The position numbers were made by a program, and so were the translations under genes. Of a stretch of 64,000 nt of DNA, positions 6,168 through 50,660 are shown piece after piece. A model generated the notes under the pieces. That model did no database searches. It was given only the letters and a program-made list of their open reading frames with translations, and had not been told where the DNA came from. Every line of letters starts with the position of its first letter. Position 1 is the stretch's first letter. The stretch covers positions 15,693 to 79,692 of the forward strand of contig CALXUB010000021.1 in assembly GCA_944391565.1 (NCBI GenBank), in the 5' to 3' direction. This DNA comes from an uncultured Alphaproteobacteria bacterium. Lineage in GTDB: Bacteria > Pseudomonadota > Alphaproteobacteria > CAAHEQ01 > UBA3637.

Positions 6168-6635
6168 TTATTCTTTTATGATAACTCCTTCGAACAGTCT
6201 TTGAAACCAAGAGACCCGCCGTCCCAAAACAACGTCACATTTTTCCGGCATCAGCACTTTCACGTTTACAACCAAATCCTGATAGGAAGAGGCAGAATGC
6301 ATTAAATTGAACGGCGTCATCTGAGGATTACCGACGACATACCGTTCCCGCAGTTCTTTTTTGATTTGAGATGTTTTTTCAATAGCCTTTTCCCCATAAA
6401 GCAAATAAACATCCGTCGGATGCGCCAGATAAGTAAAAATAAAAACACGTTGCCAGGCTTCAGGCATTTGGTTTAAAACCGGTTGATACGTTCGCATCAT
6501 CTCTTCCGTCAGCCACATTTTTTTGTGATACTTAACCCGAAGTCCGGCCTTTTTGCACGTTTTTAAAATCATCTTTTTCATGCCCCGCCGATAAGCATCC
6601 GGTTTCAGCGAGATTAATGCATATTCTCCGTCCAT
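6168..6635 (-). CDS. Divergent nucleoside-diphosphate-kinase-like protein
   Basis: N-terminal LKPDA and C-terminal NLMHSAS (phospho-His motif NxxHxS); start overlaps the stop of the upstream Hint gene. Confidence 0.7.
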   Translation of the reverse strand: MDGEYALISLKPDAYRRGMKKMILKTCKKAGLRVKYHKKMWLTEEMMRTYQPVLNQMPEAWQRVFIFTYLAHPTDVYLLYGEKAIEKTSQIKKELRERYVVGNPQMTPFNLMHSASSYQDLVVNVKVLMPEKCDVVLGRRVSWFQRLFEGVIIKE

Positions 6636-8569
6636 CAGGCTGCCTTTCGAGAACGCCAGCGCTTATCAGAAGACATTAAACGCAAAACATAATCCTGCAC
6701 TGATTTGTCGCCGTGAAAATCAGCATTCGCACGGTTAATATCCAACGGCTGTTCGGTCAAACGCAGTCCGTCAATCCATTCCTGAGGCAACAACGGGAAA
6801 TCCTCCCGTTTACTGATCAAAAGACGATCTTTCACAAATTTCATATCGCGGATGAGATATAGATTATTCAACCGACAACTGGTTAAAATTCCGCTTGTAA
6901 AACAATTCAAATGATGTTTCGTCACAATGTTATAATACTTGACTTTTTCAGAGACAACCTCTTTAGAAACCAATCGGACCTTTCGACCGGCCGCGTTAAA
7001 AGTTGTTGTGCCGATAGGTGTTTCATCCGTCATGGGATAGGTAAAAGCACCGGCTTCTTGGTTGAAAAGACGATGTTGGTTAATTGTTTTCAAAACAGAA
7101 CCGTCATCAAAACAAAGCCGGTTATAAGCGTCAGCCTCCTGCTCTATTTTTATCCATAAAGGATATGCAGCGGCGAAACATCCGTTATCGAAATCCCAAA
7201 CTTTCAGCAAGTCTTCATAGTCCACATCTTCAATGTTTTTTACACGGCCGTCTGCCAAAGTCACTTGCGTTCCCGCCGCGCAACACCACCAACACCCACC
7301 ACTGACATCATGAGGAATATTCATATAATCAGCAAATTCAAAACGGCATTTTCCATCTGTGGTGCATGTGCCGTACAATCCACCTGCCATGCATTGAGTG
7401 CCTGAAGCGCAAGTGTAATGGCTTACTTCACTGATACACCAACAAGAACCGTTTTCACAGGTATAGCCCGTTGTATCATAACCGGGCGGAACCGTGCAGG
7501 TGGTTGGACAGGCTGCTCTGCAGCTTCCCATCGTCGTACCGCAAACCTCATCCGCACATTCGCAGACACCATTTGTCGCATGCGCCACGGTGCAACCGCT
7601 GATAACACAAGGTGTACATGTTCCTGCTCCGTTGCACAAACCGGTTTTGTTATCACAAGGTGTTGTTGCAGAAGCATAAGTATATTGGGCTGTTCCGTTT
7701 TGATTGGTGCAAGCCGTCACACAATCTGTCGCAACAAAATCATGGCAGGCATCCGTCACACATTGACCGTCGTTTGTGCAAACTTCCCCTGCTCCACAGG
7801 TTATTTGTTCTTTATCGGGACAACCGTTTGTGTAAGTCGGCGATAAACAAGTGGTTTCGACAGGTGTCAGACACGCACATCCATTCAAAGTCGCATTCAC
7901 GGTTTGGTTGTCGGCGCAAGGATGTGCACCGGTTGCGGAACAATAACAATTAGATGTGTTTTGACATAAGCCGCTGACAATCGCCTCCTCCTTTAAGCAG
8001 CCATCCGAACCGGCCACTAAGCGGGTGCAATCACCGGCTGACACAGATGGACACGTTGTCTCTCCGGGATCCGGGTCAGGTGTCGGATCGGGATCAGGGT
8101 CAGGTGTCGGTGTTGAAGAAGAAGATTTCCGCCATTGTTCATAGGCAAAAGAAAACACGATGTCTTGCGTGCCCTCCCCGCAGACCGTAGAACCATCTGC
8201 CAACGTCACAGATTTCAAAGGATAAGAAATGTCTTTCATGACCTGAAGACAGACTTTTTGAGGAATATCCTCCACCGTCACGTCAATCCCGCCGTTCGAC
8301 TGTTTGACAGAAAAAGTTTTGCCTGATTGGGGTTGAAAACTGGACGGAACCGTTTCTGATTTTGTATCCAACAACAAAAGTGATAACAGTTTCGCGTCTT
8401 CTAACACGGCATTGGCACGCTGTTTATTGATGGCAATCGAATAACCGGCAACACCGCCGGCCGTCAAAACACCCGCAACCGATAAGACCCCTAAAACTTC
8501 CAACATTGTGCGACCGGACACACCGGCATATAACGATTGTTTGGATAATGAACGAACGACCTGTTTCAT
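6635..8569 (-). CDS. Type IV pilin-like leader + Pro/Asp linker + Cys-rich repeats + C-terminal Hint (autoprocessing) domain protein
   Basis: G|RTMLEVLGVL prepilin-like site and hydrophobic helix; PTPDPDPDP linker; many Cys; Hint block A CCAAGTQVTLADG, block B KTINQH, terminal YYNIVT…GILTSC; strong SD AAGGAGGAGG before ATG 8569. Confidence 0.8.
   Translation of the reverse strand: MKQVVRSLSKQSLYAGVSGRTMLEVLGVLSVAGVLTAGGVAGYSIAINKQRANAVLEDAKLLSLLLLDTKSETVPSSFQPQSGKTFSVKQSNGGIDVTVEDIPQKVCLQVMKDISYPLKSVTLADGSTVCGEGTQDIVFSFAYEQWRKSSSSTPTPDPDPDPTPDPDPGETTCPSVSAGDCTRLVAGSDGCLKEEAIVSGLCQNTSNCYCSATGAHPCADNQTVNATLNGCACLTPVETTCLSPTYTNGCPDKEQITCGAGEVCTNDGQCVTDACHDFVATDCVTACTNQNGTAQYTYASATTPCDNKTGLCNGAGTCTPCVISGCTVAHATNGVCECADEVCGTTMGSCRAACPTTCTVPPGYDTTGYTCENGSCWCISEVSHYTCASGTQCMAGGLYGTCTTDGKCRFEFADYMNIPHDVSGGCWWCCAAGTQVTLADGRVKNIEDVDYEDLLKVWDFDNGCFAAAYPLWIKIEQEADAYNRLCFDDGSVLKTINQHRLFNQEAGAFTYPMTDETPIGTTTFNAAGRKVRLVSKEVVSEKVKYYNIVTKHHLNCFTSGILTSCRLNNLYLIRDMKFVKDRLLISKREDFPLLPQEWIDGLRLTEQPLDINRANADFHGDKSVQDYVLRLMSSDKRWRSRKAA
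8063..8112 (-). repeat. Low-complexity Pro-Asp/Pro-Thr linker repeat
   Basis: PTPDPDPDPTPDPDP encoded by imperfect tandem repeats. Confidence 0.8.
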
Positions 8570-8594
8570 TTTATAAACGACCTCCTCCTTTTTA

Positions 8595-9395
8595 TTATAA
8601 TTTTTCGGCAATTTTCAATGCATCAGAAGCCGCATCGGCATTCGGATAGCCGGACAAAATAGACGTTTGCGATCGAATGGCATCTCTGACATGCGCATCG
8701 CGGCGGATAATTCCGGCCAAATCCGGCGACAGCTTTAAAAATCCCTGACACGCTTTCAACAACGTCGCGTAAGTCCTTTCGCCTTCCCGCACATTATTCA
8801 CGGCATTCACCACAATACGAATATCCACATTCGGATTTTCGGAAGATATGATTTTAATAAAAGCGTAAGCATCCGTCAACGATGTCGGCTCATCCGTGCA
8901 AACCACCAACAATGTCCCGGCGTTTTGGGCAAACAACCGGACCGCTTTTTCAACACCGGCCCCCAAATCAATCACAACTTTGTCATACTGAGACGCCAAC
9001 AGTTGCAAATCATCAAAAATCAACTGCAAACGCGACAATGGAATATTCGCTAAGCTGCCCGACCCCGAACGACCGGCGACCACATCAAATCCCAAATCCG
9101 ATTTCATCACCGCTTGCGTCAACGGCACACGTCCCGTAATAACAGAACCTAAATCGTATTCCGCCACCAATCCTAATTGAATATCTACGTTTGCCAGTCC
9201 TAAATCACCGTCAAACAGCAATGTTTTTTCGCCGGCTTTAGCCAAAGCATGCGCCAATGTAATGGACAGCCATGTTTTACCCACGCCGCCTTTGCCGGAA
9301 GCAACGGCTATCATATTACGTCCTTTGACGGCGCCGGCCGGGCGCGGTGCCATCTGCAAGGTATCCGGTAAAGTCAAAATGCGTGAAATATTCAT
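8595..9395 (-). CDS. flhG: MinD/ParA-family ATPase FlhG (FleN)
   Basis: Deviant Walker A GKGGVGKT, DGDLGLANVD, EPTSLTDAYA; follows flhF with an ATGA overlap. Confidence 0.88.
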   Translation of the reverse strand: MNISRILTLPDTLQMAPRPAGAVKGRNMIAVASGKGGVGKTWLSITLAHALAKAGEKTLLFDGDLGLANVDIQLGLVAEYDLGSVITGRVPLTQAVMKSDLGFDVVAGRSGSGSLANIPLSRLQLIFDDLQLLASQYDKVVIDLGAGVEKAVRLFAQNAGTLLVVCTDEPTSLTDAYAFIKIISSENPNVDIRIVVNAVNNVREGERTYATLLKACQGFLKLSPDLAGIIRRDAHVRDAIRSQTSILSGYPNADAASDALKIAEKL

Positions 9396-10348
9396 GATAA
9401 CCCCTCTTCTTTCAATAAAATCAATTCCGCCAAAGCCTTGGGCGTCAACGGACACAAGCCTTCGGAAACATGCGGGCTGATTCCCACATCCGACAAACTT
9501 AACCCGTTGTTTTGGGCCGCAAATAACAAACTGCCGATGCGGCGCGATAAATCCAACCGCGTTGCCAAAATCCGTTTACATCCCAGCGTCAAAAAAGCCT
9601 CCGCCATTTCTGCCGTTTCAAAAGCATCCCCGCCGGCCGAAAGAACCAAAACAGGCTCCAACCCGTCAATATCGGCTTTCAATTCGGCCAAATAAGCCAT
9701 ATCCGTTTTTAAAAACGGATTGACCCCCGGGCTGTCAATCAAAACCAAATCACTTGTTTGACGCAGACTTTCGACGGCTGTTTTCAAAAAAGCCGGTTTA
9801 CGGATTTTCACTAAATCCAACTCTAAAATTTTGGTAAAAGCCTCCAACTGTTCAATCGCGCCGGCCCGTTTTATATCGGTTGTGACTACGCCGACTTTTT
9901 TACCGGCCATTTTAGCCTTGACCGCCATTTTGGCGACCGCAATCGTCTTGCCGCACCCCGACGGTCCCGTCAGCATAAACGCCCGTCTGGAGCTTGTCGC
10001 CGGCAAGGGCATAAAGTGAAAAGTCCGCTCCAACGCATGTGTCAACAATTCTTTAGCCTCCCGTCCCGGTGCCTGTTCGGCGCCGATCAGCAACCGATCC
10101 ATTAAAATCTCGGGTACTCTGTGAGCCGCCAAAGCCGCCCGAATCACACGCAGCACTTGTTCTTCCTTAGGCCCGAACAAAGCTTCTTCAATTTCCGCTT
10201 CCGAGACTTTTTCAGGCGCTCCGACCGTCACACGCACACCGTCCGAAACATGCTGGTTTGACAAAATCAACGCGTCCGGTCCGAAATCTCTTCGAATGGC
10301 TTCCATTGCTTCGGCAAGACAAGAGGCCGCGTAGGTTTTGATTTTCAT
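9392..10348 (-). CDS. flhF: SRP-family GTPase FlhF (short B-domain)
   Basis: N-terminal MKIKTY…AMEAIRRDFGPDALILS; GPSGCGKT, DIKRAGA, DSPG and TRLD GTPase motifs. Confidence 0.88.
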   Translation of the reverse strand: MKIKTYAASCLAEAMEAIRRDFGPDALILSNQHVSDGVRVTVGAPEKVSEAEIEEALFGPKEEQVLRVIRAALAAHRVPEILMDRLLIGAEQAPGREAKELLTHALERTFHFMPLPATSSRRAFMLTGPSGCGKTIAVAKMAVKAKMAGKKVGVVTTDIKRAGAIEQLEAFTKILELDLVKIRKPAFLKTAVESLRQTSDLVLIDSPGVNPFLKTDMAYLAELKADIDGLEPVLVLSAGGDAFETAEMAEAFLTLGCKRILATRLDLSRRIGSLLFAAQNNGLSLSDVGISPHVSEGLCPLTPKALAELILLKEEGLS

Positions 10349-17161: not shown

Positions 17162-18036
17162 CTAAATACAGCTTAATCCATCTGTTGAAGCAGTCGTTCC
17201 TGTTGGACAAAACGCGCATCTTTCGCTTTGTACATCAAAATAACGGTTAGGGCAATGTTGACAATCTTCCAACGTTGTTCTCCCATTTGAGTGAATTCCA
17301 CACGTTCTACAGTCTTTATGCTCAGATACAAAGTATTTGTTTTCACATTTGTAACATTCTGAACGCTCGGTCGCATGACTGGTTATTTCACAAGAACGAC
17401 ACCCGTACACACGATCAAATATCGTATTGCAAACACATTTTTGGCAATCGCCATTGCAGCAATACGGCGTTGCCTGCGGACACTCTTTATCCTTTCTGCA
17501 TGAATGGGATACGGTTTCGGTATTTCCCGTAAAATTCGTATTGAAAAAGAAGCTGATTGTATTCAACGTTTCCGAATAACACACATTTTTCATTTTGTTA
17601 GCATTAATTTCTTCCAGCCAGTCAAGTTTTCGTGTTTTAATCTCCTGACATACGCGATAGGGAACGCCTTTGACCAAAATTTCAAAGGTCGTTTCTGTTT
17701 CTCCAACAGCGGAATAAAGGAACGAAGTTGTTCGTTCAAATTTATCTGTCATATCCAATTCTTGTTCCAAGGATAAAGATGGAAATAAATCTGCCACAAC
17801 AACAAAGCCAGCTACTTTAACATCTTCAATTAAATTGTTGGCATGATGCTTAACCATTGCATACCTGAATGTTGTTATCCCCAAAATGGATAACACAGCA
17901 ATTAAAGCTAAAACAGTAAGCATTTCTATCATGCTCCGCCCTTTTTGAATGAGCGCTTTTGATAAAGAGGGAATTAACCTAATACGTGCACGGGAGGGGG
18001 GGGGAACAACCAATAGAATCGAAGCTTCATCGTCAT
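17162..18036 (-). CDS. Pilin-like (N-methylation leader) Cys-rich protein, frameshifted in a C9 tract
   Basis: QKG|RSMIEMLTVLALIAVL leader and CxxC repeats; the SD-associated ATG at 18036 is out of frame with the main ORF (17162..18013) across G9 at 17996-18004. Confidence 0.7.
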
Positions 18037-39873: not shown

Positions 39874-40482
39874 CTAATTATTACGTTCCATTGAATTAAG
39901 CAATATTTTCATACGGTTCTGCTCTAAGAGATTTTGTTGCTCCATAAATTTATCAATCGCATTTTGAACATCTTGGACTGTCTGGCAAATACAAATGCTC
40001 TTTTTTGCAGCAATCCGATCTTTTTCTGACGGATTAAATAAAATATTCAGAAAAGTAATCCCTTTTTCGTCTGCATCAGGATATAGATCAGATAAACGAT
40101 CACCGATTAAAACGCATCTGGAAACATCTTTCGTACCGACTTTTTTTTCATAATCACCAAACATTCCTCTATCAGTTTTTTCCGAGTGCATCACAGAATC
40201 AAGATTCTGACCAAAAAATTCCAAAAGTTCAATGTATGTTTCAGTACCATTTGCCAATGAAATAATGGTATTTTTGAAACCATAGCGTTCTTTAACATTT
40301 TTTAGCATATCGAACATACTGTGATTGTAATACCTGTCAAAATACCTGTCAAATCCGACACCACTAGCTCGATAAGGCTCCTTGTCTGCCGCAGGCCTTG
40401 ATTTGACAATATCCAAATCTTGGGCTTTGTACATCCATAATGTCCCTTCTAAATCAATAAGTAAAACATTTTTATTTTCCAT
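39874..40482 (-). CDS. HAD-superfamily hydrolase-like protein
   Basis: Motif I variant LIDLEGT and motif IV IGDRLSD. Confidence 0.65.
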   Translation of the reverse strand: MENKNVLLIDLEGTLWMYKAQDLDIVKSRPAADKEPYRASGVGFDRYFDRYYNHSMFDMLKNVKERYGFKNTIISLANGTETYIELLEFFGQNLDSVMHSEKTDRGMFGDYEKKVGTKDVSRCVLIGDRLSDLYPDADEKGITFLNILFNPSEKDRIAAKKSICICQTVQDVQNAIDKFMEQQNLLEQNRMKILLNSMERNN

Positions 40483-40536
40483 TTTATTCTCCTTTAATAT
40501 CAATATATTATATCACAAAACTAAAATAAATTGTTA

Positions 40537-41700
40537 TTATTCTTTCTGGTTTTCTTTTATATTTTGCGACAGCGCTTTTTTGTGTGTAGCCACTTTACAT
40601 GGCATTTCTTTGCCGTATTTTTCATGAATCTTTAAAAGCGCCAACCGTGTTTCGCCGTCTATATACCTTGCGTCCAGAATCATCATCTGAATGCTGTCCG
40701 ACTTGCAGCCGTTTTGAAGCAGAACTTTAAGCATTGCTGCATTGCCGTTTTCGCATGCCATTTTAATTGTTTCTTCTGGCTTAGAAATTTGAAGACCTTT
40801 TGAAAACGCCCAGCTCATTAACGAAGCCTTGTCAGATTCGACAATCGCTTCTGTCAACGGATATTTTTTTGTTTTTATATCCGCTCCATGGTCGACAAGA
40901 ACTTCCGCGACCTTTTTATCACCTTTTTTCAAGGTCTGCCACAACAGCCAGTCTTTTATATCATCGCCTCTTTCAAAACGTTTGACTTTCCGCACGGCTT
41001 TAAAATCATAGCCTTTTTCTATAGCTTTATTTAAAACGGCCAAAGATGGAGCCTCTATAAAATCAGCTTTTGCGCCTTTGTCGAGTAAGAACAATTTCAT
41101 CTTGTCACTGGCGATGGAAAATAAGGTAAACGTATTACCATCATAATCACCCCAATGATACCAATCTAAGTCAATCTCATATTTTGATTTATCCAAAATC
41201 AGCTGTAATAATTCAGGAGAATCTTTTTTGATGACACGTGCCATGACAGGCTTTTGACGCCAGGCATCACCCACGTTATACTGACAAGTAAAGTTCGGAT
41301 TAGCGCCATTTTCAAGCAAATAGGAAACGCTCTCAGGAGACCAAGTTTCACCCTCAAAACCAATCTCGTCACCAAGCAGATTCATTTCCAATTCCGTTTT
41401 TGTCCAGTCAATGCAATACGGTTCCTTTTCCAAAAAGTATTCAAAAATCTTTTTATGACCTCTATAGGCACGACGAACGGAGACGGCTGAAATTGGCGTG
41501 CCGGCTTCTACTAAAATTTGAGCGGCCTCTAAGTTGTCTTGGTCAATCGCTTCATACAAAGGACTTTCCTTTTCAAACTCCTTGCCACATCCGCATCGAC
41601 ACGTAAAATAATCCGGTTTAATGTGTTTAGGATTTTTCGCCAGCTTGCGAAGTTTGTCCATATCGTTATGTTTAATGGCTGAAATCACATTATAATTCAT
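40537..41700 (-). CDS. Ankyrin-repeat protein
   Basis: SPLYEAI…LVEAG, LLENGANPN, LLDKGAK, LVDHGADI and LLQNGC repeats. Confidence 0.85.
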   Translation of the reverse strand: MNYNVISAIKHNDMDKLRKLAKNPKHIKPDYFTCRCGCGKEFEKESPLYEAIDQDNLEAAQILVEAGTPISAVSVRRAYRGHKKIFEYFLEKEPYCIDWTKTELEMNLLGDEIGFEGETWSPESVSYLLENGANPNFTCQYNVGDAWRQKPVMARVIKKDSPELLQLILDKSKYEIDLDWYHWGDYDGNTFTLFSIASDKMKLFLLDKGAKADFIEAPSLAVLNKAIEKGYDFKAVRKVKRFERGDDIKDWLLWQTLKKGDKKVAEVLVDHGADIKTKKYPLTEAIVESDKASLMSWAFSKGLQISKPEETIKMACENGNAAMLKVLLQNGCKSDSIQMMILDARYIDGETRLALLKIHEKYGKEMPCKVATHKKALSQNIKENQKE

Positions 41701-41702
41701 TT

Positions 41703-42437
41703 TTATTCTCCTTTCTCGTTTTTGTTAATGTTTTGAACTTGGACATCTTTGTGCGATGCGATTTTACGAACGGCAAACAAAGTTTTAAAGGCTTCATTTG
41801 CACTCCGACCTGCTACCGCCAAATTTTTGTTTTTAAAGGCTTTAATCTCGGTCACGTCTTTTGCCTCAGCTCCAAAGTATTCCGGTAACTGATAAGCATT
41901 GGCCTCTTCGATACTTTCAAACTCCACTTCAACAGAGGCAAAATCAAAGCCCATTTGCTCGTCATAAATATCGACTTCCAAAACATGCGTGCCGTCGTTG
42001 ATTTTAAAGCGCTCTTTTTTCACAAATCCAACTGCTTGTTTTTTAAAGGCCATTGCTTGTTCCGCCGAAATTTCAAACTCTTCTTCAAAGCGCATTAAAT
42101 CACCTTTTCCCTTAATCGTCAGGACAAATTTTTCGTTCCCATAATTGCGATAACGAATTTCCATATCGTTCAAACCGTCAGCAGCGATATAACCCGCAAA
42201 ATTGTGAATGACTGTATCGACAATGATATAGTCCGCAACATTGCGAATGACTTCATCAGAAACTTGAATTTTCTGCCCAGCACAATAGATGGATTTATAT
42301 CCGATCGTGAGCTCTGCTTTTTTTGGGTCTAAATAGCCTTGCTCCAAAGCTATCACCTCATGCGCTTTTTGTGCCAATACCTTTCGGTCAATTTTGGATT
42401 TAGGCATCACCCATTTTTTTTCGATTTCTTTTCCCAT
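41703..42437 (-). CDS. CYTH-domain (triphosphate tunnel metalloenzyme) protein
   Basis: EIEKKW (ExExK), EQGYL, RYR…LTIKG, RFEEEFEI and EVEF motifs. Confidence 0.88.
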   Translation of the reverse strand: MGKEIEKKWVMPKSKIDRKVLAQKAHEVIALEQGYLDPKKAELTIGYKSIYCAGQKIQVSDEVIRNVADYIIVDTVIHNFAGYIAADGLNDMEIRYRNYGNEKFVLTIKGKGDLMRFEEEFEISAEQAMAFKKQAVGFVKKERFKINDGTHVLEVDIYDEQMGFDFASVEVEFESIEEANAYQLPEYFGAEAKDVTEIKAFKNKNLAVAGRSANEAFKTLFAVRKIASHKDVQVQNINKNEKGE

Positions 42438-42438
42438 T

Positions 42439-43185
42439 TTATTCCTCTCTTTCATGTTGTTGGTTAATGTTGATTGGATAGTCTTTATGGCAGGCGACAA
42501 AACGCACAGCAGCTTTTTGTTCTGCCTCACAAACTTTGCCTTCAATCACTAAATCGGCAAATTCTTTGTTCGGTATGATGTACTTTGAAGCGGCTTTTGA
42601 TACAATCTCAAATTGCTTTTTCATTTGAAGCGGATCTTGATTACGCGTGATGGCTCTTTCTTGATAGCGCTTCCATTGAACGGCTTTATCGATTGATAAG
42701 TAAATTTTCAAGTCAAATAAATCCCGAACTTCTGGATATAACGTACAAATGCTTTCAACAAACACTATTTTTGAGGGCCGACAGTGTATGGCTTTTGCTT
42801 TTGACGAACCATCCCGCATTTCGTAATAAGGAGTATCAATCGTTCGCCCAGACCTCAAGGCTTTTAAATCCGAGGATAACAAATCCATTTGAAAGTTTTG
42901 AGAACTTTCTGTTTCATATCCACTTTCCACCAGTTTTGTAAAAGAGCCAACCTCCGAAATTCGATCAGAAATGTCACAAAAGTAATTGTCCGCACTGATA
43001 ACAGACATCTGAGGAACTTTGTCCTTCAAAGCATTCAACAAGGTTGTTTTTCCCGATGCACTTTCTCCACATAAAGCGACTAAAATGACATCTTGTTGCT
43101 TCATCAGCTTGGCTAATTTTTGTTTAATGGCAGGTGTTGATTGCAAAACATTTGCATGTTGTAAAATTGCATCAATTAAATTCAT
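42439..43185 (-). CDS. Uridine kinase/phosphoribulokinase-family P-loop kinase
   Basis: GESASGKTT, DNYF, PYYE, DLFDLKIYL and YIIPNKEFAD motifs. Confidence 0.85.
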   Translation of the reverse strand: MNLIDAILQHANVLQSTPAIKQKLAKLMKQQDVILVALCGESASGKTTLLNALKDKVPQMSVISADNYFCDISDRISEVGSFTKLVESGYETESSQNFQMDLLSSDLKALRSGRTIDTPYYEMRDGSSKAKAIHCRPSKIVFVESICTLYPEVRDLFDLKIYLSIDKAVQWKRYQERAITRNQDPLQMKKQFEIVSKAASKYIIPNKEFADLVIEGKVCEAEQKAAVRFVACHKDYPININQQHEREE

Positions 43186-43197
43186 TTTTTAACTCCT

Positions 43198-43260
43198 TTA
43201 TAAAGCTGCTAAAACTAAAGCGATGGGTACTAAAATTACAAAATCAATTAAATCTCTCAT
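43198..43260 (-). CDS. 20-aa hydrophobic peptide MRDLIDFVILVPIALVLAAL
   Basis: Strong SD AAGGAGG; its stop overlaps the SD of the kinase gene. Confidence 0.5.
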   Translation of the reverse strand: MRDLIDFVILVPIALVLAAL

Positions 43261-43378
43261 TTTTGCCTCCTTTATTCTCGTACAAGTTCTCTTTTTTCAA
43301 TCAACTTCAAAAGTTCTTTTCTTTTTGATACTTGTTTTTTTCCTTTTAAACCGCCGATCAATTCGCTCAAGATGAAAA

Positions 43379-43501
43379 TTAGCTTTCCAGTTCTTTTAGT
43401 TTTAAACGCCTTTTTTCCTTTCTGCTTTCTTCTTCACTAAGGAATAATTCATAGACCCACTCTTCAAGTTCAAAGAAAACGCCTTTTCCCAAATGTTCCA
43501 T
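43379..43501 (-). CDS. 40-aa charged peptide (MEHLGKGVFFELEEW…)
   Basis: Strong SD AAGGAGGAG; first ORF after an AT-rich promoter region. Confidence 0.45.
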   Translation of the reverse strand: MEHLGKGVFFELEEWVYELFLSEEESRKEKRRLKLKELES

Positions 43502-43725
43502 TTTCTCCTCCTTTTTGTTTTGCCCGGAAACTATTTCCTTGCTTACATCTTTAATTTAACACAAAAAATAAACACAATGAATATAAAATACATAGTTTTA
43601 TATTAAAATATGTGTTTTAAATTGTTTATAAAATATAAAATATGTAAAATAAATAAATGAGATATAAAAAAAGCATCCGAATTTGGATGCAAGAAGGGTA
43701 AAAAGAGATTAAAAAAGCGAATCGG

Positions 43726-44430
43726 TTACAAATTGTTCCAAATGAAATCGAATTGTTTCCGTGCTGTTTCTGCCGTTTGTTCGTGCGTTATAATCATAAT
43801 ACGAAAAGGCGTTTCAAAAAATAAATATGCCAACCGATCCTTATAAATAATGCTGGGCATGAGCGGCAGTCCTTTGACATTTGCCAAACGTTTTTCACCG
43901 CCAACGAAGGTAATCCCCGCATCTTGTTTAGGATAGCAAAGCGTCTTCACACGAATACCTTGATTTTTTGTAATTTTCTGTTGAAAAGCAGCAACATCTG
44001 ATTTACCAATTTGAAGCAGTTTGTTTTCGTCAATTCCGCAAAGCAGCAATTCTCCGCCTTCTTTATCCATAACATGAATGATGTTACGCAATAGCTGCAG
44101 CAAAGTACTTGCCCCTTCCAAAACTTTGACACGAAAGAAAGCATTTTCAATCCGCACGCCCGGACCATCAATAAACTGCACACCGCTTAGTTCGAATGTT
44201 TGCTGAATATCTGATATTGTATCCGTTCTGGCACTCGCGATGCCACGTTCAATATTATTGATTGCAGGCAAGGAATATCCTGATTTTTTGGCCAAATCCG
44301 CTTGTGACCAACCTAATAAAGCGCGTGCCGCTTTAATCTGCTCTGGGGCCAATGTTGGCAGAGAATTTAAATCTCGAACCAAAGTAATGTTTTTCTCTGA
44401 AATATATTCTTCTTTTTGTTTTTGAGCCAT
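43726..44430 (-). CDS. XRE-family HTH regulator with a C-terminal sensor-like domain
   Basis: QIKAARALLGWSQADLA…INNIERG; hairpin GCATCC…GGATGC downstream. Confidence 0.88.
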   Translation of the reverse strand: MAQKQKEEYISEKNITLVRDLNSLPTLAPEQIKAARALLGWSQADLAKKSGYSLPAINNIERGIASARTDTISDIQQTFELSGVQFIDGPGVRIENAFFRVKVLEGASTLLQLLRNIIHVMDKEGGELLLCGIDENKLLQIGKSDVAAFQQKITKNQGIRVKTLCYPKQDAGITFVGGEKRLANVKGLPLMPSIIYKDRLAYLFFETPFRIMIITHEQTAETARKQFDFIWNNL

Positions 44431-44539
44431 TTTCGTTTCCTTTTACTCAAAAGAATAATCCATCTTTCCAACTAAATCAATATAAAATACTTGCAAAAAC
44501 TATATAAAATGCATAAAATGAGCAAAAAGGGAACAAAAA

Positions 44540-45391
44540 ATGGATTATAACAAGGTTCAAACAATTATTGATATCTTACAAAACAGTTTGATTGTGGAAG
44601 CTGTACGTCCTACATTAAAAGATAAATTGCTGAGTGCTGATTTAAGCGAACCTAAATTAATTGCAATTTCTGGAGAAAGTGCCTCTGGAAAATCTGCTTT
44701 AATGAATACGATTAAACAGTACTTACCAAATGCAACTTATTTATCAACTGATAATTACTTTAAAGATTTTTCAGACGGCATTGCCTTGCATGGTTCGTTT
44801 GATGCAATGCTTGCTGCTGGGTATGCGATGCAAGCACCGTACAGCATTCATTTAGATATTTTAAGACAGAATTTACTTGATCTAAAAAACGGCAAAGACG
44901 TCAAAATTCCTCACCATTTATTGGACGGTTCAGGTAAAACAATTTTAAATGCCATTCCGGTAAAATCATCCAAGATTGTTTTTGTCGACGGATTTTGCAC
45001 ACTTTATGATGAAGTCCGTGATTTGTTTGATTTTGCTATTTATTTAGAAGTAGAAAGCTCTGTTCAGAAAAAAGCTTTCTTTGAGCTATCAGCTGACCGA
45101 AAAGCAACAGAAGAACAAACAAAACGAATTTTCAAAATCTTATCCGTTAGTTCTGAGATTTATATCAAACCAACCAAAGAATTTGCTGACGTTGTATTAA
45201 ATTTATTGAATGACGAACCACAGCAATCCGTTTTAGTTAAAGATGTTATTTCCTGTCTGAGTGGCCATCAAGTACAAGCTGAAACCTTGACACAAAAACT
45301 GATTCACCCAAGTGGTGACTTAGCTCTTCTCTGGCATTCTCTTTCTCCCACACTTCAAAAAGAAATTCTAAAAGAGTTGGATGGAAAGTAG
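44540..45391 (+). CDS. Second uridine kinase-family P-loop kinase
   Basis: GESASGKS, DNYFKD, TLYDEVRDLFD and YIKPTKEFAD; clear paralog of 42439..43185. Confidence 0.85.
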   Translation: MDYNKVQTIIDILQNSLIVEAVRPTLKDKLLSADLSEPKLIAISGESASGKSALMNTIKQYLPNATYLSTDNYFKDFSDGIALHGSFDAMLAAGYAMQAPYSIHLDILRQNLLDLKNGKDVKIPHHLLDGSGKTILNAIPVKSSKIVFVDGFCTLYDEVRDLFDFAIYLEVESSVQKKAFFELSADRKATEEQTKRIFKILSVSSEIYIKPTKEFADVVLNLLNDEPQQSVLVKDVISCLSGHQVQAETLTQKLIHPSGDLALLWHSLSPTLQKEILKELDGK

Positions 45392-45754
45392 TTAAATAAA
45401 ATAACTCTTTTGCTTAAATAACTTTTATTAATGTTTTATCATTAAAAAATTTTTCTTAAAATTTAGTTGCGCCTTATTTTGCAAGAATATTAAAAAATTA
45501 GAGTATGCAATAGGCAGAATCAAGTTAAAATATAGAAACCACTTAAAAACTGTACAAATACCATCGTTAGAAAATCAAGACATCTGATTTTCAAAGCGAG
45601 GCGGAAAAACGTGTCATTTATAGACTATTATTTGATGCCTATGACTTCTGTGCATTAGTAATATTAAATTAAAATCAGTCACAAACTTGCATTTGCAAAT
45701 GTTACATATTAGTTTAGTATAAGCAAAATTAATTTGATGTTAAGGTAAGATAGA

Positions 45755-46294
45755 ATGTGTTGTTATATTTGTAATTTAGTTATTGGTTTTATATCAAAAC
45801 TGTTAGAGCCTATGGCGCTTTTTACATTAATTTTAGTTGTATTTTCATATTTTCAATATTTAGTTCAAAAAAAAGCACATATGCTGAATTTGTTTAATAA
45901 ACGATGGCAAGCGTTTAAAGATTTACAAGAAATTGGGGAAAAAGCTGAAAATTGGAAACATATTTATTATCAAAACAAACCAGCTATAGAAGAAAATTAT
46001 TGGACAATGTATAATAAAATTAATCTGTTTGCTGATGAATGCGAAATTTTATTTAATAAAGATATTTCACAAATAGGTAAAGAAACTGCAGATTTTTTTA
46101 AGAAATATCATCAAATCATCGACCATATAAAAGATTGGGACAAATATCATGAAGAGGACCCAGAACAATTTACTAAAGAGAAAAAAAAAGATTTGTTTAA
46201 CGAGCAGATTAATACAAGTATAAAGTTACTTAAATTATTTGATGTTTGGTATAAGAAGATATTAACTTTCATAAAAGATAACAAAATAGATTAA
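45755..46294 (+). CDS. Hypothetical AT-rich protein with an N-terminal TM helix
   Basis: Long ORF in AT-rich DNA, TM followed by LFNKRW. Confidence 0.6.
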   Translation: MCCYICNLVIGFISKLLEPMALFTLILVVFSYFQYLVQKKAHMLNLFNKRWQAFKDLQEIGEKAENWKHIYYQNKPAIEENYWTMYNKINLFADECEILFNKDISQIGKETADFFKKYHQIIDHIKDWDKYHEEDPEQFTKEKKKDLFNEQINTSIKLLKLFDVWYKKILTFIKDNKID

Positions 46295-46443
46295 ATATCT
46301 ATCATAACTTCACTGTCTCAACACCTACAAGTTAGCAACCGATCAAAACCTGCTGTTTAACCATTTTTACTTCATCAGCGATTTTATTAAATCTGAGGTA
46401 AATTTTTGAAACTATTGTGTTGGACCATCGTATTAACACACTT

Positions 46444-47577
46444 TTAATCTCGACATTTTCCCTTATTAAATATTTCTATTGGATGAGGTATTCGCTTCCC
46501 TGACAATCTCTTATTTGCAAATCGCATTGTCCAAGGGCTTCTATAATTATTCCATACTTCTGGCTCTAATGCTGTACTTTTAAATGCCTTCTCTATAATT
46601 TTTCTTGCTTTAAAAAAGTATTCAATATTATTAGCCTCTGGCGTTTTAATTGTTGCAGACTGCTTATTGTGAATTTGTAATAAATTTACAATAGGAAACA
46701 CGTTACAAACTTCACGAAATTCATTAAAATATTTTTCTACAGTGTTTAACGGCTCCAGTCCTAAAACATAAGAATATGTAACCTCAAACTCCATTTTCCT
46801 TGCCTTTAACATAAGACTTTTAATATATTCAATAGACAATTTACTTTTGCTTTCTCTTAATTTATTTCTGTTTTCAAAGGTTTCTATGGAAAAACAGATG
46901 CGCATCGGTTGACATCCTACAAGCTGTTGCAAATCTTCTTCTGTTGATATTTGCGATCCTAAGTATAACAACCGTCCTTTAAAATTAAACTCATTGTCTG
47001 CAACATGCTTAATATTTTTTAATGTTTCGATAACTTGATTACTATCTGTATAGCAGCCTGTAACAACAGATAACTCAATTAAATCACCTAAGTCTTTCAT
47101 ATCATATTTATCCAGAAATTTAACAAAAAAGTTTTTAAAGTCTTCTTTTGTTAATAGTTTCTTATTATCATGAGGTATCTGGTAAATAGCATAACAAAAA
47201 TTACATCCCCTGCAGGACGTTCGTTGATTAGGATTTATATTTAAAGAAGTACGCTCTCTTCGCCAATAATGAGAGTTACATATATCTTCCGTAGTTCCTT
47301 CCATAAGACCTAATTCAGTGTTATTTAAAAGTAATTTATTATTATTCAATTTGAAGGGGCTATTTTTGTGAACTGGCAGAGCAAAATAAAAATAGCTTTC
47401 ATTTTCATTTACAGTCAGAGGAAAAAGATTCGTATTGGTTACATGAAGCTGTCCCCGCATGCGATCATAGCCACAATCATAGTCTACGCCCGTTGTATTA
47501 AGAGCAATAAATACACTGTCCTCCATAGGAATTTCATATTTTTCAGACAACTTTTTGATCAAATCAATATCTAACAT
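46444..47577 (-). CDS. Radical SAM-like protein with an atypical CxxCxxC motif
   Basis: SCRGCNFC, VVTGC, FSIETF and YSYVLGLE radical-SAM-like barrel motifs. Confidence 0.75.
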   Translation of the reverse strand: MLDIDLIKKLSEKYEIPMEDSVFIALNTTGVDYDCGYDRMRGQLHVTNTNLFPLTVNENESYFYFALPVHKNSPFKLNNNKLLLNNTELGLMEGTTEDICNSHYWRRERTSLNINPNQRTSCRGCNFCYAIYQIPHDNKKLLTKEDFKNFFVKFLDKYDMKDLGDLIELSVVTGCYTDSNQVIETLKNIKHVADNEFNFKGRLLYLGSQISTEEDLQQLVGCQPMRICFSIETFENRNKLRESKSKLSIEYIKSLMLKARKMEFEVTYSYVLGLEPLNTVEKYFNEFREVCNVFPIVNLLQIHNKQSATIKTPEANNIEYFFKARKIIEKAFKSTALEPEVWNNYRSPWTMRFANKRLSGKRIPHPIEIFNKGKCRD

Positions 47578-48416
47578 TTTTCTTTCTCTTCTCTTACGAG
47601 TTGGTTTAAAAAATCCACTTTCTTTTGAGAAACTAAAAGGGTAGATAAAACAGGAACAGTAATCACTTTATGCTTTGCAATAACTTTTGATACTTCATCT
47701 AAAAAACCTTCTCGTTTATCATCATCGCCTATATCTATAATTTTGGGAAAAGTCTTAAGCAACTGAGGATATGTTTTTTCATCATAGTTATAATGCGTCA
47801 GATACCTGTTCAAAAAGATCAAATTGAAATAAGGATTATGAGCGATTTGTGCAATTCGACCATTTAATTTATTTAAAACCCCTTCATTTACCTCCTTTGT
47901 TGTTTTAGGCGCATAAATATCGGGCAACCACTTTTGATATAGGTCCTCAATTTCTTTAGTTGTCGTATTTTCAGCCTTTAAAAAACTATTCCAAACTGTT
48001 ATCAACTTGCCATCCTCTGCAAGTAAGTTTAATAATTTTGGATAGACATCTTCATTTTTAAGCCAATGAAGTGCTGTAAAAGTAGCTATAGCTTCAAATT
48101 TTTCTGTTGTGGAAAAATCTTCAAATGTAGAATTTATAACCTGTATTTTGTTGTTATTGGCAACTGAAGCTCGTGCGATTTTGCATAAACTTTCCCCAGG
48201 CTCAACTGCAACGATACGACAATTAAAATTGCCTAATTTTTTTGTAGAAATCCCACTTCCTGCCCCAATCTCCAATATTCTGTTTGTATCTGTTATGTCG
48301 CATACCTTATAAATATCATCAAACAACTCATCTGGATAAGATGGTCTAACCTCATCGTAATTATTTGCATAAACATCAAAGGATGCATTAAAGAGTGTTT
48401 TTCCTCGAAAATCCAT
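47571..48416 (-). CDS. Class I SAM-dependent methyltransferase
   Basis: YDEVRPSYP, LEIGAGSG, VEP and TALHW motifs. Confidence 0.9.
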   Translation of the reverse strand: MDFRGKTLFNASFDVYANNYDEVRPSYPDELFDDIYKVCDITDTNRILEIGAGSGISTKKLGNFNCRIVAVEPGESLCKIARASVANNNKIQVINSTFEDFSTTEKFEAIATFTALHWLKNEDVYPKLLNLLAEDGKLITVWNSFLKAENTTTKEIEDLYQKWLPDIYAPKTTKEVNEGVLNKLNGRIAQIAHNPYFNLIFLNRYLTHYNYDEKTYPQLLKTFPKIIDIGDDDKREGFLDEVSKVIAKHKVITVPVLSTLLVSQKKVDFLNQLVREEKEKC

Positions 48417-48417
48417 T

Positions 48418-48972
48418 TTAATCGCCTCTCACAAAATTTTGAAATCTATTCTTAATAAAAGCCAAATCTAACGGTCTAGAAAAGTCCCGCCGCCCACCTA
48501 GTTTAATTGGAACGCGGATAAATCCCAACTTGCCGGTTGTGTTTTTAATCGCATAGATAAACTCATTCACAGTTTTAACATCTACCACTTTTCCATACCC
48601 AACTTCTGTTGCAATTTTACACAAATCAATATCTTTCGAAAAAGATTTTTCTTCACTACAAGAAGCATATGATCCATTATCTAAAATAATATGAAGCAAA
48701 TTATGGGGTTTTTGATTCCCCAAAGTAGCCATACTTCCTAAATTCATTAACAAAGCTGAATCTCCATCTATTACAATGACTCTTTTCTTCGTATTTAATG
48801 CGATGCCAAGCCCAATAGATGAAGCGGCTCCCATTGATCCTGTCATATAAAAGTTGCCTGGCCTATCATACTTTTCAAAAATTTCTCTTGAAATAAGCCC
48901 CGTTGTTGACACGATCAAATCGTCATCGTTAATATTATGAATTATTGTTTGTATAGCAACTTCTCTATTCAT
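48418..48972 (-). CDS. Sulfopyruvate/phosphonopyruvate decarboxylase beta-type subunit (ComE-like, ThDP-binding)
   Basis: STTGLISRE, FYMTGSMG and GDSALLMNLG…DNG motifs. Confidence 0.88.
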   Translation of the reverse strand: MNREVAIQTIIHNINDDDLIVSTTGLISREIFEKYDRPGNFYMTGSMGAASSIGLGIALNTKKRVIVIDGDSALLMNLGSMATLGNQKPHNLLHIILDNGSYASCSEEKSFSKDIDLCKIATEVGYGKVVDVKTVNEFIYAIKNTTGKLGFIRVPIKLGGRRDFSRPLDLAFIKNRFQNFVRGD

Positions 48973-49510
48973 GCTGCCACCCGCGTTTTAATAAAGCAAC
49001 AAATGGTAAATTAGTCTTTGCTATACGTTTAAAACCATTATCAACGAATTTCTCCATGCTTTCACCGTGGTAAACAGCATAATCAAGACCAAAAGATTGA
49101 ATTAATTTTTCTGTTGCAGATCCTGTTATAAAATGTTGAGGAGCGTTTTCTCCTTCACACCCACGATATGAAACTACCATATATACAGGTATTTCATAAG
49201 GGATTAAAAGGGATGCGATGTTATTACTTGCCGCAAATAGCCCTGAATTTTGCATATATAGCATCGTTTTTTGATTAGCTAATACTGCGCCCGCAGCTAT
49301 ACCAATAGACTCTGCCTCATTTGTAGCTGGAATATGTCGTATTTTGGGATCATTAGCGATGTTATTAATAATGTGCCTTATAACTCCGCATGGCACCCCC
49401 GTGGCGACTTTTATGCCATTTTGCTTTATTGCATTGTGGAATGCAATTGTTTTAGGAGTGTTTATAAAATCTAAATTATTAAAATTTTTCATGGTTATTA
49501 TTTTTAACAT
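48965..49510 (-). CDS. Sulfopyruvate/phosphonopyruvate decarboxylase alpha-type subunit (ComD-like)
   Basis: GVPCG, NEAESIGIAAG, MQNSGL and YRG…PQH motifs. Confidence 0.88.
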   Translation of the reverse strand: MLKIITMKNFNNLDFINTPKTIAFHNAIKQNGIKVATGVPCGVIRHIINNIANDPKIRHIPATNEAESIGIAAGAVLANQKTMLYMQNSGLFAASNNIASLLIPYEIPVYMVVSYRGCEGENAPQHFITGSATEKLIQSFGLDYAVYHGESMEKFVDNGFKRIAKTNLPFVALLKRGWQHE

Positions 49511-49778
49511 AAAGTTTAAAGAAGGTCAACAATTTCACTTCTAAAAAAACTAATTTTATCAATAAAAAATAATATGTTATGTATATTATTCTCTCAAGGG
49601 TACAAATTCAACATAAGATATTCATACCCATAGGGTTCAAGCGAGTATTAGCCTTAATATAGCCCTTTCATGATTTCAAACCGAGAAAGGATTATGTATC
49701 TTGCATGGCGCGCTTATAAACTAATATAACTATATGATAAATAAAGAAAAATCTCCATTTCTGACGATTTTTGAACTG

Positions 49779-49896
49779 TGGCTGGGTGGCTGATTGTCAA
49801 TCGGCTGATGCACGATTTATCATGCGCTATTGCTTGGACTGTCCTTACGGACATCGTGTCTGCGGGATACAAAGCATCCCTTGACACCGAACCAAC
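49779..49896 (-). pseudogene. Degenerate 3' fragment of tRNA-Gln(UUG) with a 92-nt palindromic insert in the T-loop
   Basis: tggctgggtggctgatt|insert 49796-49887|cgaaccaac versus the intact gene tggctggggtggctggatt|cgaaccaac. Confidence 0.7.
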
Positions 49897-49937
49897 TCAT
49901 GCCATTCGTTGACATCTAATCCAACACACCAAAACCA

Positions 49938-50000
49938 ATAAAAAAAGCCCGAAAGATCAGGCTTTTTTTATTGGCTGGAGAGGTCTGGTAATACACGGAC
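49938..50000. other. Terminator-like hairpin plus a second degenerate tRNA-Gln 3'-end (att-like scar)
   Basis: AAAAAAGCC…GGCTTTTTT followed by TGGCTGG and the TACACGGAC motif also found in the 199-bp repeats. Confidence 0.45.
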
Positions 50001-50078
50001 TTTCAAACAGTACTTTTTGCTTGTAATAAGAAAAAACATCAGATATGATATAGTATATTGTTTTAAAAAAGGATAAAA

Positions 50079-50660
50079 ATGAAAAAAATTTTTCTTATCT
50101 TATCCCTCTTTTGCTTATTTGGCTGTCAGACAAATTATTTTGAAGACTTTTATAATGACGAAGAGCAAGAACTTCATACCTATATTCCTCGCAAACGAAA
50201 TGAAGACGTTAAGGTTATTGACACGATAGACTTAGAAAATACTTTAAAACGTTATGAAAAAGATTATATTGTTTTAGGAACATCTGCCTTTAACGGACAT
50301 TGGTGTTCTCGTTCTTTAGCTGTTGATTTAGCAAAAGAAAAAGGGGCAACACTGGTTGTTATTGGAATTAAACCAACAGGAGCAACATCCGATACCGTAG
50401 CGATAGCAATTCCTCAAGCAAATACAATATATCATTCAGGGTCCATTTCAGGGCAATCTTATACTTCAGGAAATGTATATGCTAGTAACGGAGCTTGGGC
50501 AAATTATAATTCTTCAACAACAGCGTATGGTTCTTATAGTGGAACATCAACATATTATACGACTAATACTATATATAAACAAATAAATAACTACTATTTT
50601 GATCAATATGCTTTCTTTATGGCTAAAAAGAATAAACTTACGGAGGAAAAAAATGATTAG
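50079..50660 (+). CDS. Hypothetical lipoprotein
   Basis: Lipobox LFGC; Ser/Gly/Tyr-rich segment. Confidence 0.8.
   Translation: MKKIFLILSLFCLFGCQTNYFEDFYNDEEQELHTYIPRKRNEDVKVIDTIDLENTLKRYEKDYIVLGTSAFNGHWCSRSLAVDLAKEKGATLVVIGIKPTGATSDTVAIAIPQANTIYHSGSISGQSYTSGNVYASNGAWANYNSSTTAYGSYSGTSTYYTTNTIYKQINNYYFDQYAFFMAKKNKLTEEKND

Follow-up and report, generated by a model that had tools for sequence, protein, structure and literature searches.

A predicted modular pilin-like surface protein ending in a Hint domain and a conserved tail in an uncultured gut alphaproteobacterium

Hint domains have so far been known from inteins, Hedgehog processing domains and a few bacterial intein-like types. Among the bacterial intein-like (BIL) domains, those of the A type end in His-Asn and those of the B type make up Pfam Hint_2. 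S74 domains end phage tail spikes and tail fibres as well as modular pilins, use a Ser-Lys dyad and remove themselves after folding, and we take IPR030392 to be this self-cleaving intramolecular-chaperone domain. [quoted passage not shown] The BIL2 domain of Tetrahymena lies between ubiquitin-like domains, keeps its terminal Asn and ligates through a Lys (PMC8616854). Hog domains combine a Hint domain with an SRR or ARR (PMC2362128), and the Hedgehog SRR is depicted as a hydrophobic, membrane-embedding helix-loop-helix (PMC7906309). In Hog domains, motif J closes the Hint domain where inteins have motif G, motifs K and L belong to the adduct-recognizing SRR, and the term ARR is a loose one. 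Pfam PF07591 is the Pretoxin-HINT of polymorphic toxins (PMC3482391).

We analyzed a window, the whole stretch of 64,000 nt, from an uncultured gut alphaproteobacterium with a 1.27-Mb genome. Judging from its sequence, the gene at 6635-8569 encodes a modular, pilin-like surface protein whose C-terminus is a cassette formed by a Hint domain and a tail. This gene and all other features given below lie on the minus strand. The open reading frame is found exactly where the original prediction placed it, encoding 644 aa from an ATG at 8569 to a stop codon at 6635-6637; an alternative TTG start at 8611 would give an ORF of 658 aa (6635-8611). A cluster of 25 members (at least 90% identity) retains full-length ORFs in many assemblies. 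Upstream, a gene for an FlhG/MinD-type ATPase (8595-9455), the last of the flagellar run fliG-fliN-motA-flhF-flhG, ends 25 nt from the ATG at 8569. Downstream lies the gene of a divergent, NDK-like 155-aa protein (6168-6635), and its start and the Hint gene's stop codon overlap. The relative L017 has the same stop/start overlap and an identical gene order of flagellar run and Hint gene.

Glu at position +5 is typical of a class III signal. Such a signal is defined by a hydrophilic leader that ends in Gly or Ala, followed by about 21 hydrophobic residues (PMC8179133). The protein starts with a hydrophilic leader peptide (aa 1-19, 8513-8569) that ends in Gly19 at a predicted prepilin-peptidase site, G/R, and continues into a pilin alpha1-N segment (aa 20-60, 8390-8512) made of R-T-M-L-E24 and a hydrophobic tract. 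The prepilin-like leader proposed earlier is thus borne out as S-G19/R-T-M-L-E24 followed by a hydrophobic stretch, and Gly19, Glu24 at +5 and the hydrophobic tract all agree with a class III signal. The +1 residue is Arg instead of Phe or Met, and the leader is absent from the 24 matches to Pfam N_methyl (PF07963) in the genome at E ≤ 1. Scanning the genome for the leader motif gave 29 matches, 27 of them class III variant leaders, and 8 of these approximately 27 pilin-leader proteins are 600-1,224 aa long. We consider the leader, from its sequence, to be a class III signal in a variant form specific to the lineage. The segment that follows (aa 61-150, 8120-8389, with Cys107 and Cys130) is a putative pilin head assigned from sequence and has no PDB or Pfam match; phmmer likewise found nothing in the PDB for aa 1-170. 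[quoted passage not shown] The same genome encodes an A24 prepilin peptidase (65.4 bits), a T2SSE ATPase (231 bits), two T2SSF platform proteins and a secretin.

The expected Pro/Asp linker is present at aa 151-172 (8054-8119) and is rich in Thr, Pro and Asp. It leads into a stalk or adhesin region rich in Cys (aa 173-428, 7286-8053) with 36 Cys in 256 aa, a stretch initially described as about 260 aa of Cys-rich repeats. Self-BLASTP of this region found no internal repeats, so that only "Cys-rich", and not "repeats", is supported. In the homologue P0004, precomputed annotation places EGF-type Pfam domains at the corresponding position.

Sequence, profile and structure matches place the Hint domain at aa 429-565 (6875-7285). 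It starts with C-C-A-A-G-T, opening on Cys429 (7283-7285), and ends with G-I-L-T-S-C, closing on Cys565 (6875-6877), just as the original prediction had it; the block-B Thr and His proposed there were found as Thr495 (7085-7087) and His499 (7073-7075). As a structural prediction, the Hint fold of this region is certain. An AF2 model of the Hint domain and tail reached a pLDDT of 91.5 and a pTM of 0.88. At E ≤ 1e-3, Foldseek returned 65 matches from the PDB; among the matches listed, every one is a Hint domain, led by BIL2 6y75 (E 1.8e-11) and followed by 2lwy (E 1e-9). VIA aligned the model with 29 chains at Z of at least 8, including Tetrahymena BIL2 6tmm (Z 17.2, rmsd 1.9, 141 aligned residues), the BIL domain of C. 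thermocellum 2LWY (Z 15.9) and Hedgehog 1at0 (Z 14.6, rmsd 1.8, 133 aligned residues). AF2, Foldseek and VIA therefore agree on the fold that had been foreseen for this module.

Hedgehog 1at0 ranks eighth to ninth in Foldseek and VIA. At the sequence level, phmmer found BIL2 as the best PDB match (E 0.005); a search of the PDB with the family profile also gave BIL domains as best matches (E 2e-6) and contained no Hedgehog chain at E < 10. The Hint domain is thus closest to BIL domains and has no specific kinship with Hedgehog. As for BIL domains, the carriers of the cassette are highly variable proteins. Pfam PF01079 (Hint) and Hint_2 do not match the protein at E ≤ 1. Among 54 relatives, 24 match PF01079 (best 2e-5) and 17 match Hint_2 (best 1e-5) at E ≤ 1, counts that refer to this E-value and not to the curated cut-offs. 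The ESM Atlas returned only generic Hint look-alikes.

Conservation was counted over 303 distinct Hint+tail modules from relatives. The first Cys is present in 303/303 (291 aligned, and 12 just upstream of the module cut), the block-B His in 303/303 and the Thr in 284/303. Block B is spaced T-x-x-x-H, one residue more than the T-x-x-H of inteins and Hedgehog, and divergent viral members show variation in the loop. The domain ends in I-L-T-S-C, with Thr and Ser each kept in 299 of the modules. The position of the terminal Asn of inteins is taken by Cys in 230, Asn in 28 and other residues in 45; no His-Asn end is present. In the protein itself this position is Cys565, followed by Arg, in line with the proposal that an intein-type Asn end is missing.

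The approximately 79 residues noted beyond the Hint domain form a tail (aa 566-644, 6638-6874) predicted to fold into a beta-hairpin and three helices. In module numbering, N151 is Asn569 (6863-6865), K162 is Lys580 (6830-6832), R185 is Arg603 (6761-6763) and E188 is Glu606 (6752-6754). N151 is present in 303/303 modules, R185 and E188 each in 302/303 and K162 in 293/303, so the tail, by alignment, is as conserved as the active site; an unconserved tail would have spoken against the original prediction. It is hydrophilic, with a GRAVY of -0.72, 35% charged residues and a best 19-aa hydropathy window of 0.25. Compared alone with solved folds, it gave a best E of 1 in a profile search of the PDB, no Foldseek match at E ≤ 10 and a best VIA Z of 2.3. 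The pattern of conservation, which plain hydrolysis would not explain, points to an added role for N151, R185 and E188, for example in binding an acceptor, in a second reaction or in packing that is obligatory.

The last 216 residues, Hint domain plus tail, form one cassette, whose end is no more than 40 aa from the C-terminus in 237/241 homologues. Its family holds 594 clusters (50% identity) at E ≤ 1e-30 and spans bacteria of several phyla and viruses at 40-70% identity. Searching with the whole protein yielded only 5 matches, the Cys-rich region having swamped the result; a region search worked. Pilin-like leaders of three sequence classes occur on 67/241 homologues; other homologues adjoin major-head, tape-measure and tail-fibre genes of phage structural modules, where the cassette proteins are presumably made in the cytoplasm. 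In the phage members it is accompanied by a translationally coupled HAD_SAK_2 gene. The module is present in a single copy in the genome, and in the orthologue P0003 its identity is 74% versus 64% for the whole protein, which we count as selection on the module. Pfam, NCBIfam and PHROGs returned no family above cut-off for the protein or the module, nor did tblastn match the module to any of 50,697 GenBank phage records or 72,556 plasmids. Literature on Hint domains with pilins, tail fibres and modular pilins held no description of the cassette, subscription journals and supplements being outside the reach of the search. The cassette is confined to uncultured organisms, in keeping with the lack of a family model or published account, and as a family it is undescribed. 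Two recurring neighbour clusters were discarded as spurious antisense ORFs inside the module, and the "Hint domain" of phiCbK was set aside as a TerL intein, irrelevant to the cassette.

We propose that the cassette forms a thioester at the Trp428-Cys429 junction and removes itself, acting as a self-removing maturation cap, and we give this reading of sequence and model a probability of roughly 0.55. By analogy with established pilin biology, the A24 prepilin peptidase would cut the class III leader after Gly19, and the alpha1-N helix would hold the protein in the inner membrane until it is handed over to the type IV filament machine and displays its disulfide-rich stalk. After folding, Cys429, assisted by His499, would attack the Trp428-Cys429 bond, producing the thioester by an N-S acyl shift. 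As the intein terminal position lacks an Asn, neither splicing nor a cut between Hint domain and tail would be expected. The thioester would instead be resolved at the N-terminal junction by water, a thiol or a specific acceptor, releasing Hint domain and tail as a single 25-kDa piece and giving the adhesin a new C-terminus. The cassette would then serve as a maturation cap for extracellular fibres, pilin-borne and phage alike, with the tail required for the reaction or for the role of the cap. Several points speak against this reading: block B has the atypical T-x-x-x-H spacing, plain hydrolysis leaves the invariance of the tail residues N151, R185 and E188 unaccounted for, the leader misses N_methyl, and in an oxidizing periplasm with 36 Cys nearby Cys429 could become locked in a disulfide. 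A three-copy complex prediction of the module, which bears on the idea of a trimerizing chaperone, scored 0.00 and gives no verdict either way.

The same thioester might also be passed on to an acceptor. In a Hog-like version, which we regard as doubtful, the tail would recruit a nucleophile to the Cys429 thioester, and the adhesin's new C-terminus would end up bearing a small molecule, the head group of a lipid, an amine of the cell wall or a protein of the target surface, as a "chemical harpoon". A Hint domain that lacks the terminal Asn and precedes a conserved C-terminal region matches the layout described for Hog (PMC2362128), and with this conserved extension closing an exported protein the layout parallels it. 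The tail, besides being conserved like the active site, has its own confidently predicted fold packed on the Hint domain (pTM 0.88). VIA superposed model residues 11-148 on Hedgehog residues 258-401, and the Cys565 of T-S-C would sit about opposite Hedgehog residue 400; the motif-J Cys of non-animal Hog domains is also reported to be variable (PMC2362128). However, the tail is hydrophilic where the SRR is described as hydrophobic (PMC7906309), the sequence link to Hedgehog is missing, and no acceptor-making gene is conserved next to the cassette in bacteria. The cassette also occurs in what are presumably two settings, on phage proteins of the cytoplasm and on pilin-like proteins that are exported, and any acceptor would have to be shared by both. 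With the phage proteins presumably made in the cytoplasm, a lipid or sterol acceptor is unlikely. What survives of the Hog-like module is therefore its architecture, a Hint domain lacking the terminal Asn followed by a conserved tail, while Hedgehog kinship, a hydrophobic tail and a constant T-S-C Cys (only 230/303) do not. Transfer to an amine, directed by Asn569, Lys580, Arg603 and Glu606 in a second step after thioester formation at Cys429, would make the cassette a two-step ligase acting on a tail Lys (with excision of the Hint domain at Asn569) or on a target surface; we consider this unlikely. The particular BIL2-like course, with Lys580 attacking the thioester, Asn569 cyclizing, and the excised Hint domain leaving the tail on the adhesin through a Lys side chain, strikes us as quite unlikely. 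The closest solved relative, Tetrahymena BIL2, does form a Lys isopeptide (PMC8616854), and the first Cys, the His, N151 (303/303) and K162 (293/303) would suit the roles needed, but N151 lies four residues past the position aligned with the terminal Asn of inteins and BIL2, is preceded at position 150 by N or S and not by His, and K162 is replaced in 10/303 modules.

We give similarly little weight to a Hint fold without chemistry, kept on the mature protein as a folding, docking or binding domain. The atypical spacing of block B would fit such a domain, yet Cys and His in 303/303 modules across several bacterial phyla and viruses are hard to explain without chemistry. An intein was rejected because the domain is terminal and not inserted, and has neither the Asn nor a C-extein. 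A pretoxin-HINT that frees the C-terminal 79 aa as an effector would agree with a location close to the C-terminal end of a large exported protein and with the sub-threshold Pfam matches to PT-HINT (PF07591) in 5/54 members. Nevertheless, the tail is conserved and not polymorphic, there is no Asn for a cut between Hint domain and tail, the genome has one copy only, and 115 loci showed no conserved bacterial neighbour, immunity-like or acceptor-making genes included. We therefore rejected a polymorphic toxin on the grounds of the conserved tail and the missing recurrent immunity gene, and rate this possibility as highly improbable.

The cassette adds a very large and tightly conserved Hint family, with a companion tail of no known fold, that caps pilin-borne and phage fibre proteins. 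If self-cleaving, as in the preferred maturation-cap reading, it would solve, independently and for a second time, the problem that S74 chaperone domains address; if ligating, it would offer a new natural tool for protein conjugation. Were the two-step ligase true, a covalent, ATP-independent "click" device would form the end of pilus-borne adhesins and of phage fibres. The cassette would also parallel Hedgehog processing more closely than any bacterial case described to date. It further marks the gut alphaproteobacterium, with its 1.27-Mb genome, as investing about 27 genes in pilin-leader proteins.

Among known systems, modular type IV pilins such as PilB and PilC of Streptococcus sanguinis similarly join a class III signal and a pilin module to large C-terminal modules (PMC8179133). 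The protein differs from them in its Arg at +1 and in missing N_methyl, and the 15 frequent architectures that PMC8179133 names do not include Hint; Dataset S1 of that paper may list Hint-bearing pilins. Pretoxin-HINT shares the placement of a Hint domain near the C-terminus of large exported proteins, and differs in having a variable toxin where the cassette has a conserved tail, which moreover has no immunity neighbour. S74 domains resemble the cassette in their two habitats, phage fibres on the one hand and modular pilins on the other, in their place at the very C-terminal end and in self-removal, putative for the cassette; fold and chemistry are unrelated, and Pfam S74 does not match the protein at E ≤ 1. 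The best sequence and structure matches are the BIL2 of Tetrahymena thermophila BUBL1 (6Y75/6TMM) and the Clostridium thermocellum BIL (2LWY), which likewise are Hint domains in variable, non-housekeeping proteins with N-terminal thioester chemistry, again putative for the cassette. Identity to these two is 18-21%, and the cassette, in contrast to BIL2, is terminal, lacks Asn at that position and continues into an unrelated conserved tail of 79 aa. Hedgehog/Hog (1AT0) has no detectable sequence relation to the cassette, whose hosts are bacteria and phages and whose tail is a hydrophilic hairpin with short helices in place of the hydrophobic helix-loop-helix of the SRR. Nevertheless, the two have in common the Hint fold, the first Cys with the block-B His, the absence of a terminal Asn and a conserved C-terminal extension on an exported protein.

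The target gene occupies positions 6635-8569 on the reverse strand and runs for 644 codons from an ATG; its mechanical ORF extends further, to a TTG at 8611. We verified the part boundaries of the protein codon by codon and arrived at the same ones as the original prediction. A hydrophilic leader ending in Gly19 (aa 1-19, 8513-8569) is followed by R-T-M-L-Glu24 and a hydrophobic tract (aa 20-60, 8390-8512), a two-Cys segment representing a putative pilin head (aa 61-150, 8120-8389), a Thr/Pro/Asp linker (aa 151-172, 8054-8119), a Cys-rich region with 36 Cys in 256 residues (aa 173-428, 7286-8053), a Hint domain that starts with C-C-A-A-G-T and ends with G-I-L-T-S-C (aa 429-565, 6875-7285), and a 79-residue C-terminal tail (aa 566-644, 6638-6874), all on the reverse strand. 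The Cys-rich region had been described as repeats, but BLASTP of the region against itself reveals no internal repeat. The putative pilin head has no PDB match by phmmer.

Upstream of the target gene lies a same-strand run of fliG-fliN-motA-flhF-flhG, with a gap of 25 nt after flhG. A divergent NDK-like gene follows (6168-6635, reverse strand; Pfam NDK 27.5 bits, confined to profile positions 1-86 of 135), its start overlapping the target stop codon, and secA comes next. The related locus L017 has the same gene order and stop/start overlap, and in both, translation of the NDK-like gene is coupled to that of the Hint gene. The other NDK match of the genome is equally weak. Elsewhere, positions 40000-54000 form a low-GC stretch (0.30-0.38 vs 0.44-0.51 in the rest of the window) and are possibly a foreign island.

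The target leader falls below Pfam N_methyl, probably because its +1 residue is Arg. Scanned for the leader motif, the genome that the window belongs to (G000; 1.27 Mb, 37 contigs, 94% complete) gave 29 matches. In 27 of them a G-[RHK]-[ST]-[ML]-[IL]-E-x-L leader runs into a hydrophobic helix, and eight of these 27 ORFs extend 600-1,224 aa past the Gly. By its sequence, the target leader is a member of a lineage-specific pilin-leader class. With 27 ORFs of this G-R-S-M-I-E-M-L-G-V-L leader type, the genome devotes a very large proportion of its small size to modular pilin-like proteins; a further one, of 283 aa, lies inside the window (17162-18013, reverse strand). Machinery required by such leader proteins is also encoded: an A24 prepilin peptidase, a T2SSE ATPase, a secretin and a T2SSF platform protein (two matches). 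Against the PDB, a profile that includes homologue N-termini matches geopilin (E 8.5e-4) and PilA (E 0.045). Among 241 homologues, 67 begin with a pilin-like leader of one of three sequence classes: G-R-S-M-x-E (20), G-I-T-L-I-A/S-L without Glu5 (40) and the classic F-T-L-x-E (7). The second of these, in the form G-I-T-L-I-A/S-L-I-I-T and with neither Glu5 nor Phe1, is carried by homologues P0011-P0037, including P0023, and others (40/241).

Pfam gives a single sub-threshold match on the target protein, to block A (E 0.094), whereas in the PDB phmmer matches the last 226 aa to Tetrahymena BIL2 chains alone (E 0.005), a result that improves to E 2e-6 with a 54-sequence module profile. The AlphaFold2 model of Hint plus tail (36-row alignment) has a pLDDT of 91.5 and a pTM of 0.88. 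Foldseek places BIL2 first (E 1.8e-11), then the C. thermocellum BIL (E 1e-9) and mini-inteins; Hedgehog 1at0 ranks ninth (E 1.2e-7). VIA Z scores follow suit (BIL2 17.2, C. thermocellum BIL 15.9, inteins about 15, Hedgehog 14.6, Vint 9.7). Every structural alignment is confined to model residues 8-150. The analyses other than Pfam clearly bear out the predicted Hint domain: the modelled Hint fold of aa 429-565 is certain, the cassette belongs to the Hint superfamily, and BIL domains are the nearest relatives of the target Hint, with inteins and Hedgehog a small margin behind.

Of 1,637 candidates from a word-indexed search with aa 425-644, 925 proteins pass E<=1e-3. An exhaustive phmmer search of 1.84 billion cluster representatives found 2,754 at E<=1e-3, of which 1,141 reach E<=1e-10 and 594 reach E<=1e-30; the weaker matches may be other Hint families. 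In 237 of 241 homologues no more than 40 aa separate the end of the cassette match from the C-terminus, the median being five residues. Across 303 distinct modules (module numbering), Cys1, the block-B His, Trp40, Phe42 and the tail residue Asn151 are invariant, 12 of the Cys1 residues being seen just upstream of the extraction cut. The tail residues Arg185 and Glu188 are each present in 302 and Lys162 in 293, compared with 284 for the block-B Thr and 230 for the Cys of T-S-C, which is Asn in 28. The tail is therefore under as tight a constraint as the catalytic residues. A separate model of the tail (53-row alignment, pLDDT 84) shows a hairpin and three helices that match no solved structure: the top VIA Z is 2.3, Foldseek returns nothing, and the lowest E of a PDB profile search is 1. 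The pretoxin-HINT reading of the cassette is rejected on account of the conserved tail. Orthologue P0003 is 74% identical within the cassette vs 64% overall, and the window's genome holds one copy. In Firmicutes/Tenericutes-type members (P0045, P0055, P0061, P0066, P0074 and P0113; loci L021, L025, L041 and L045-L048), the first Hint hairpin is extended just past block A by 7-12 inserted residues rich in Glu and Lys, of the type E-E-E-D-E-N-G-K-K-K-K-R.

The cassette is so far restricted to uncultured organisms and is common in IMG/VR and MAGs. Grouped by record titles, 35 bacterial loci from species-representative genomes include Alphaproteobacteria MAGs (11), Clostridia/Firmicutes (7), Bacilli/Tenericutes (6), and Gastranaerophilaceae/Cyanobacteria, Burkholderiales/beta-proteobacterial/Neisseriaceae and gamma-proteobacterial-type MAGs (3 each). 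In IMG/VR, 92 of 366 pattern matches encode a relative, and the 80 loci kept include several-hundred-kb contigs and two giant-virus MAGs. Major-head, tape-measure and tail-fibre genes lie near the cassette gene in sampled viral loci, and several carriers are similar to tail fibres. In BFVD, the top match comes from a Gaeavirus: a 'Hint domain-containing protein' with 44% identity over 212 columns, covering the entire cassette. None of 50,697 GenBank phage records or 72,556 plasmids contains the cassette, and none of ten cassette clusters looked up has a meaningful name. A HAD_SAK_2 gene (PF18143, E 1e-16 to 1e-19) of about 165 aa stands beside the Hint-plus-tail gene in 31 of 115 related loci (30/80 viral, 1/35 bacterial; L034 and L056-L117, e.g. 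L071:8582-9076 and L057:5724-6215), on the same strand and starting at, or at most about 120 nt from, its stop; the paired carriers measure 292 to 1,757 aa. HAD_SAK_2 may be a functional partner of the cassette in phages. A PF18143 search found no match in the window's genome, but none in 14 control genomes either, and so does not establish absence.

What chemistry might the cassette perform? In a sequence alignment, the target Hint has no Asn at the intein/BIL2 terminal-Asn position; terminal and with neither this Asn nor a C-extein, the cassette is not an intein. Lacking the Asn, it is expected to undergo neither splicing nor a cut between Hint and tail. An N-S acyl shift at Trp428-Cys429 would instead produce a thioester which, resolved at the N-terminal junction, would free Hint and tail in one piece. 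With the Cys and His both present in 303/303 modules, a Hint that performs no chemistry is unlikely. Since the cassette sits on exported pilin-like proteins and on phage structural-module proteins, the latter presumably made in the cytoplasm, we infer that it is a maturation cap which removes itself, much like the S74 intramolecular-chaperone domains (which we take to be IPR030392).

Plain self-cleavage does not account for the invariance of Asn151, Arg185 and Glu188. A BIL2-like route, with attack by Lys162 and cyclisation of Asn151, would employ exactly the most conserved residues and resembles the reaction of BIL2, its nearest relative of solved structure (PMC8616854); however, Asn151 lies four residues beyond the canonical position. 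The Hog-like tagging put forward in the original prediction, in which an adduct is transferred by the cassette, fits the layout, and the observation behind it is confirmed. The interpretation is supported in part. Sequence relations do not point to Hedgehog, and neither the hydrophilic tail (GRAVY -0.72; mean -0.75 over 53 tails, with 32-35% charged residues) nor the occurrence of the cassette in two cellular settings suits adduct transfer; the cassette is not demonstrably a Hog domain.

We found no literature description of Hint-capped pilins or fibres; Dataset S1 of PMC8179133 may list such architectures. The target leader matches what that paper defines as a class III signal peptide, and the whole protein agrees with its concept of modular pilins; the paper also counts the IPR030392 peptidase domain among the frequent modular-pilin architectures. 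Among known Hint systems, the cassette is nearest to the BIL domains, from which it differs in that its Hint is without their type-specific ends.
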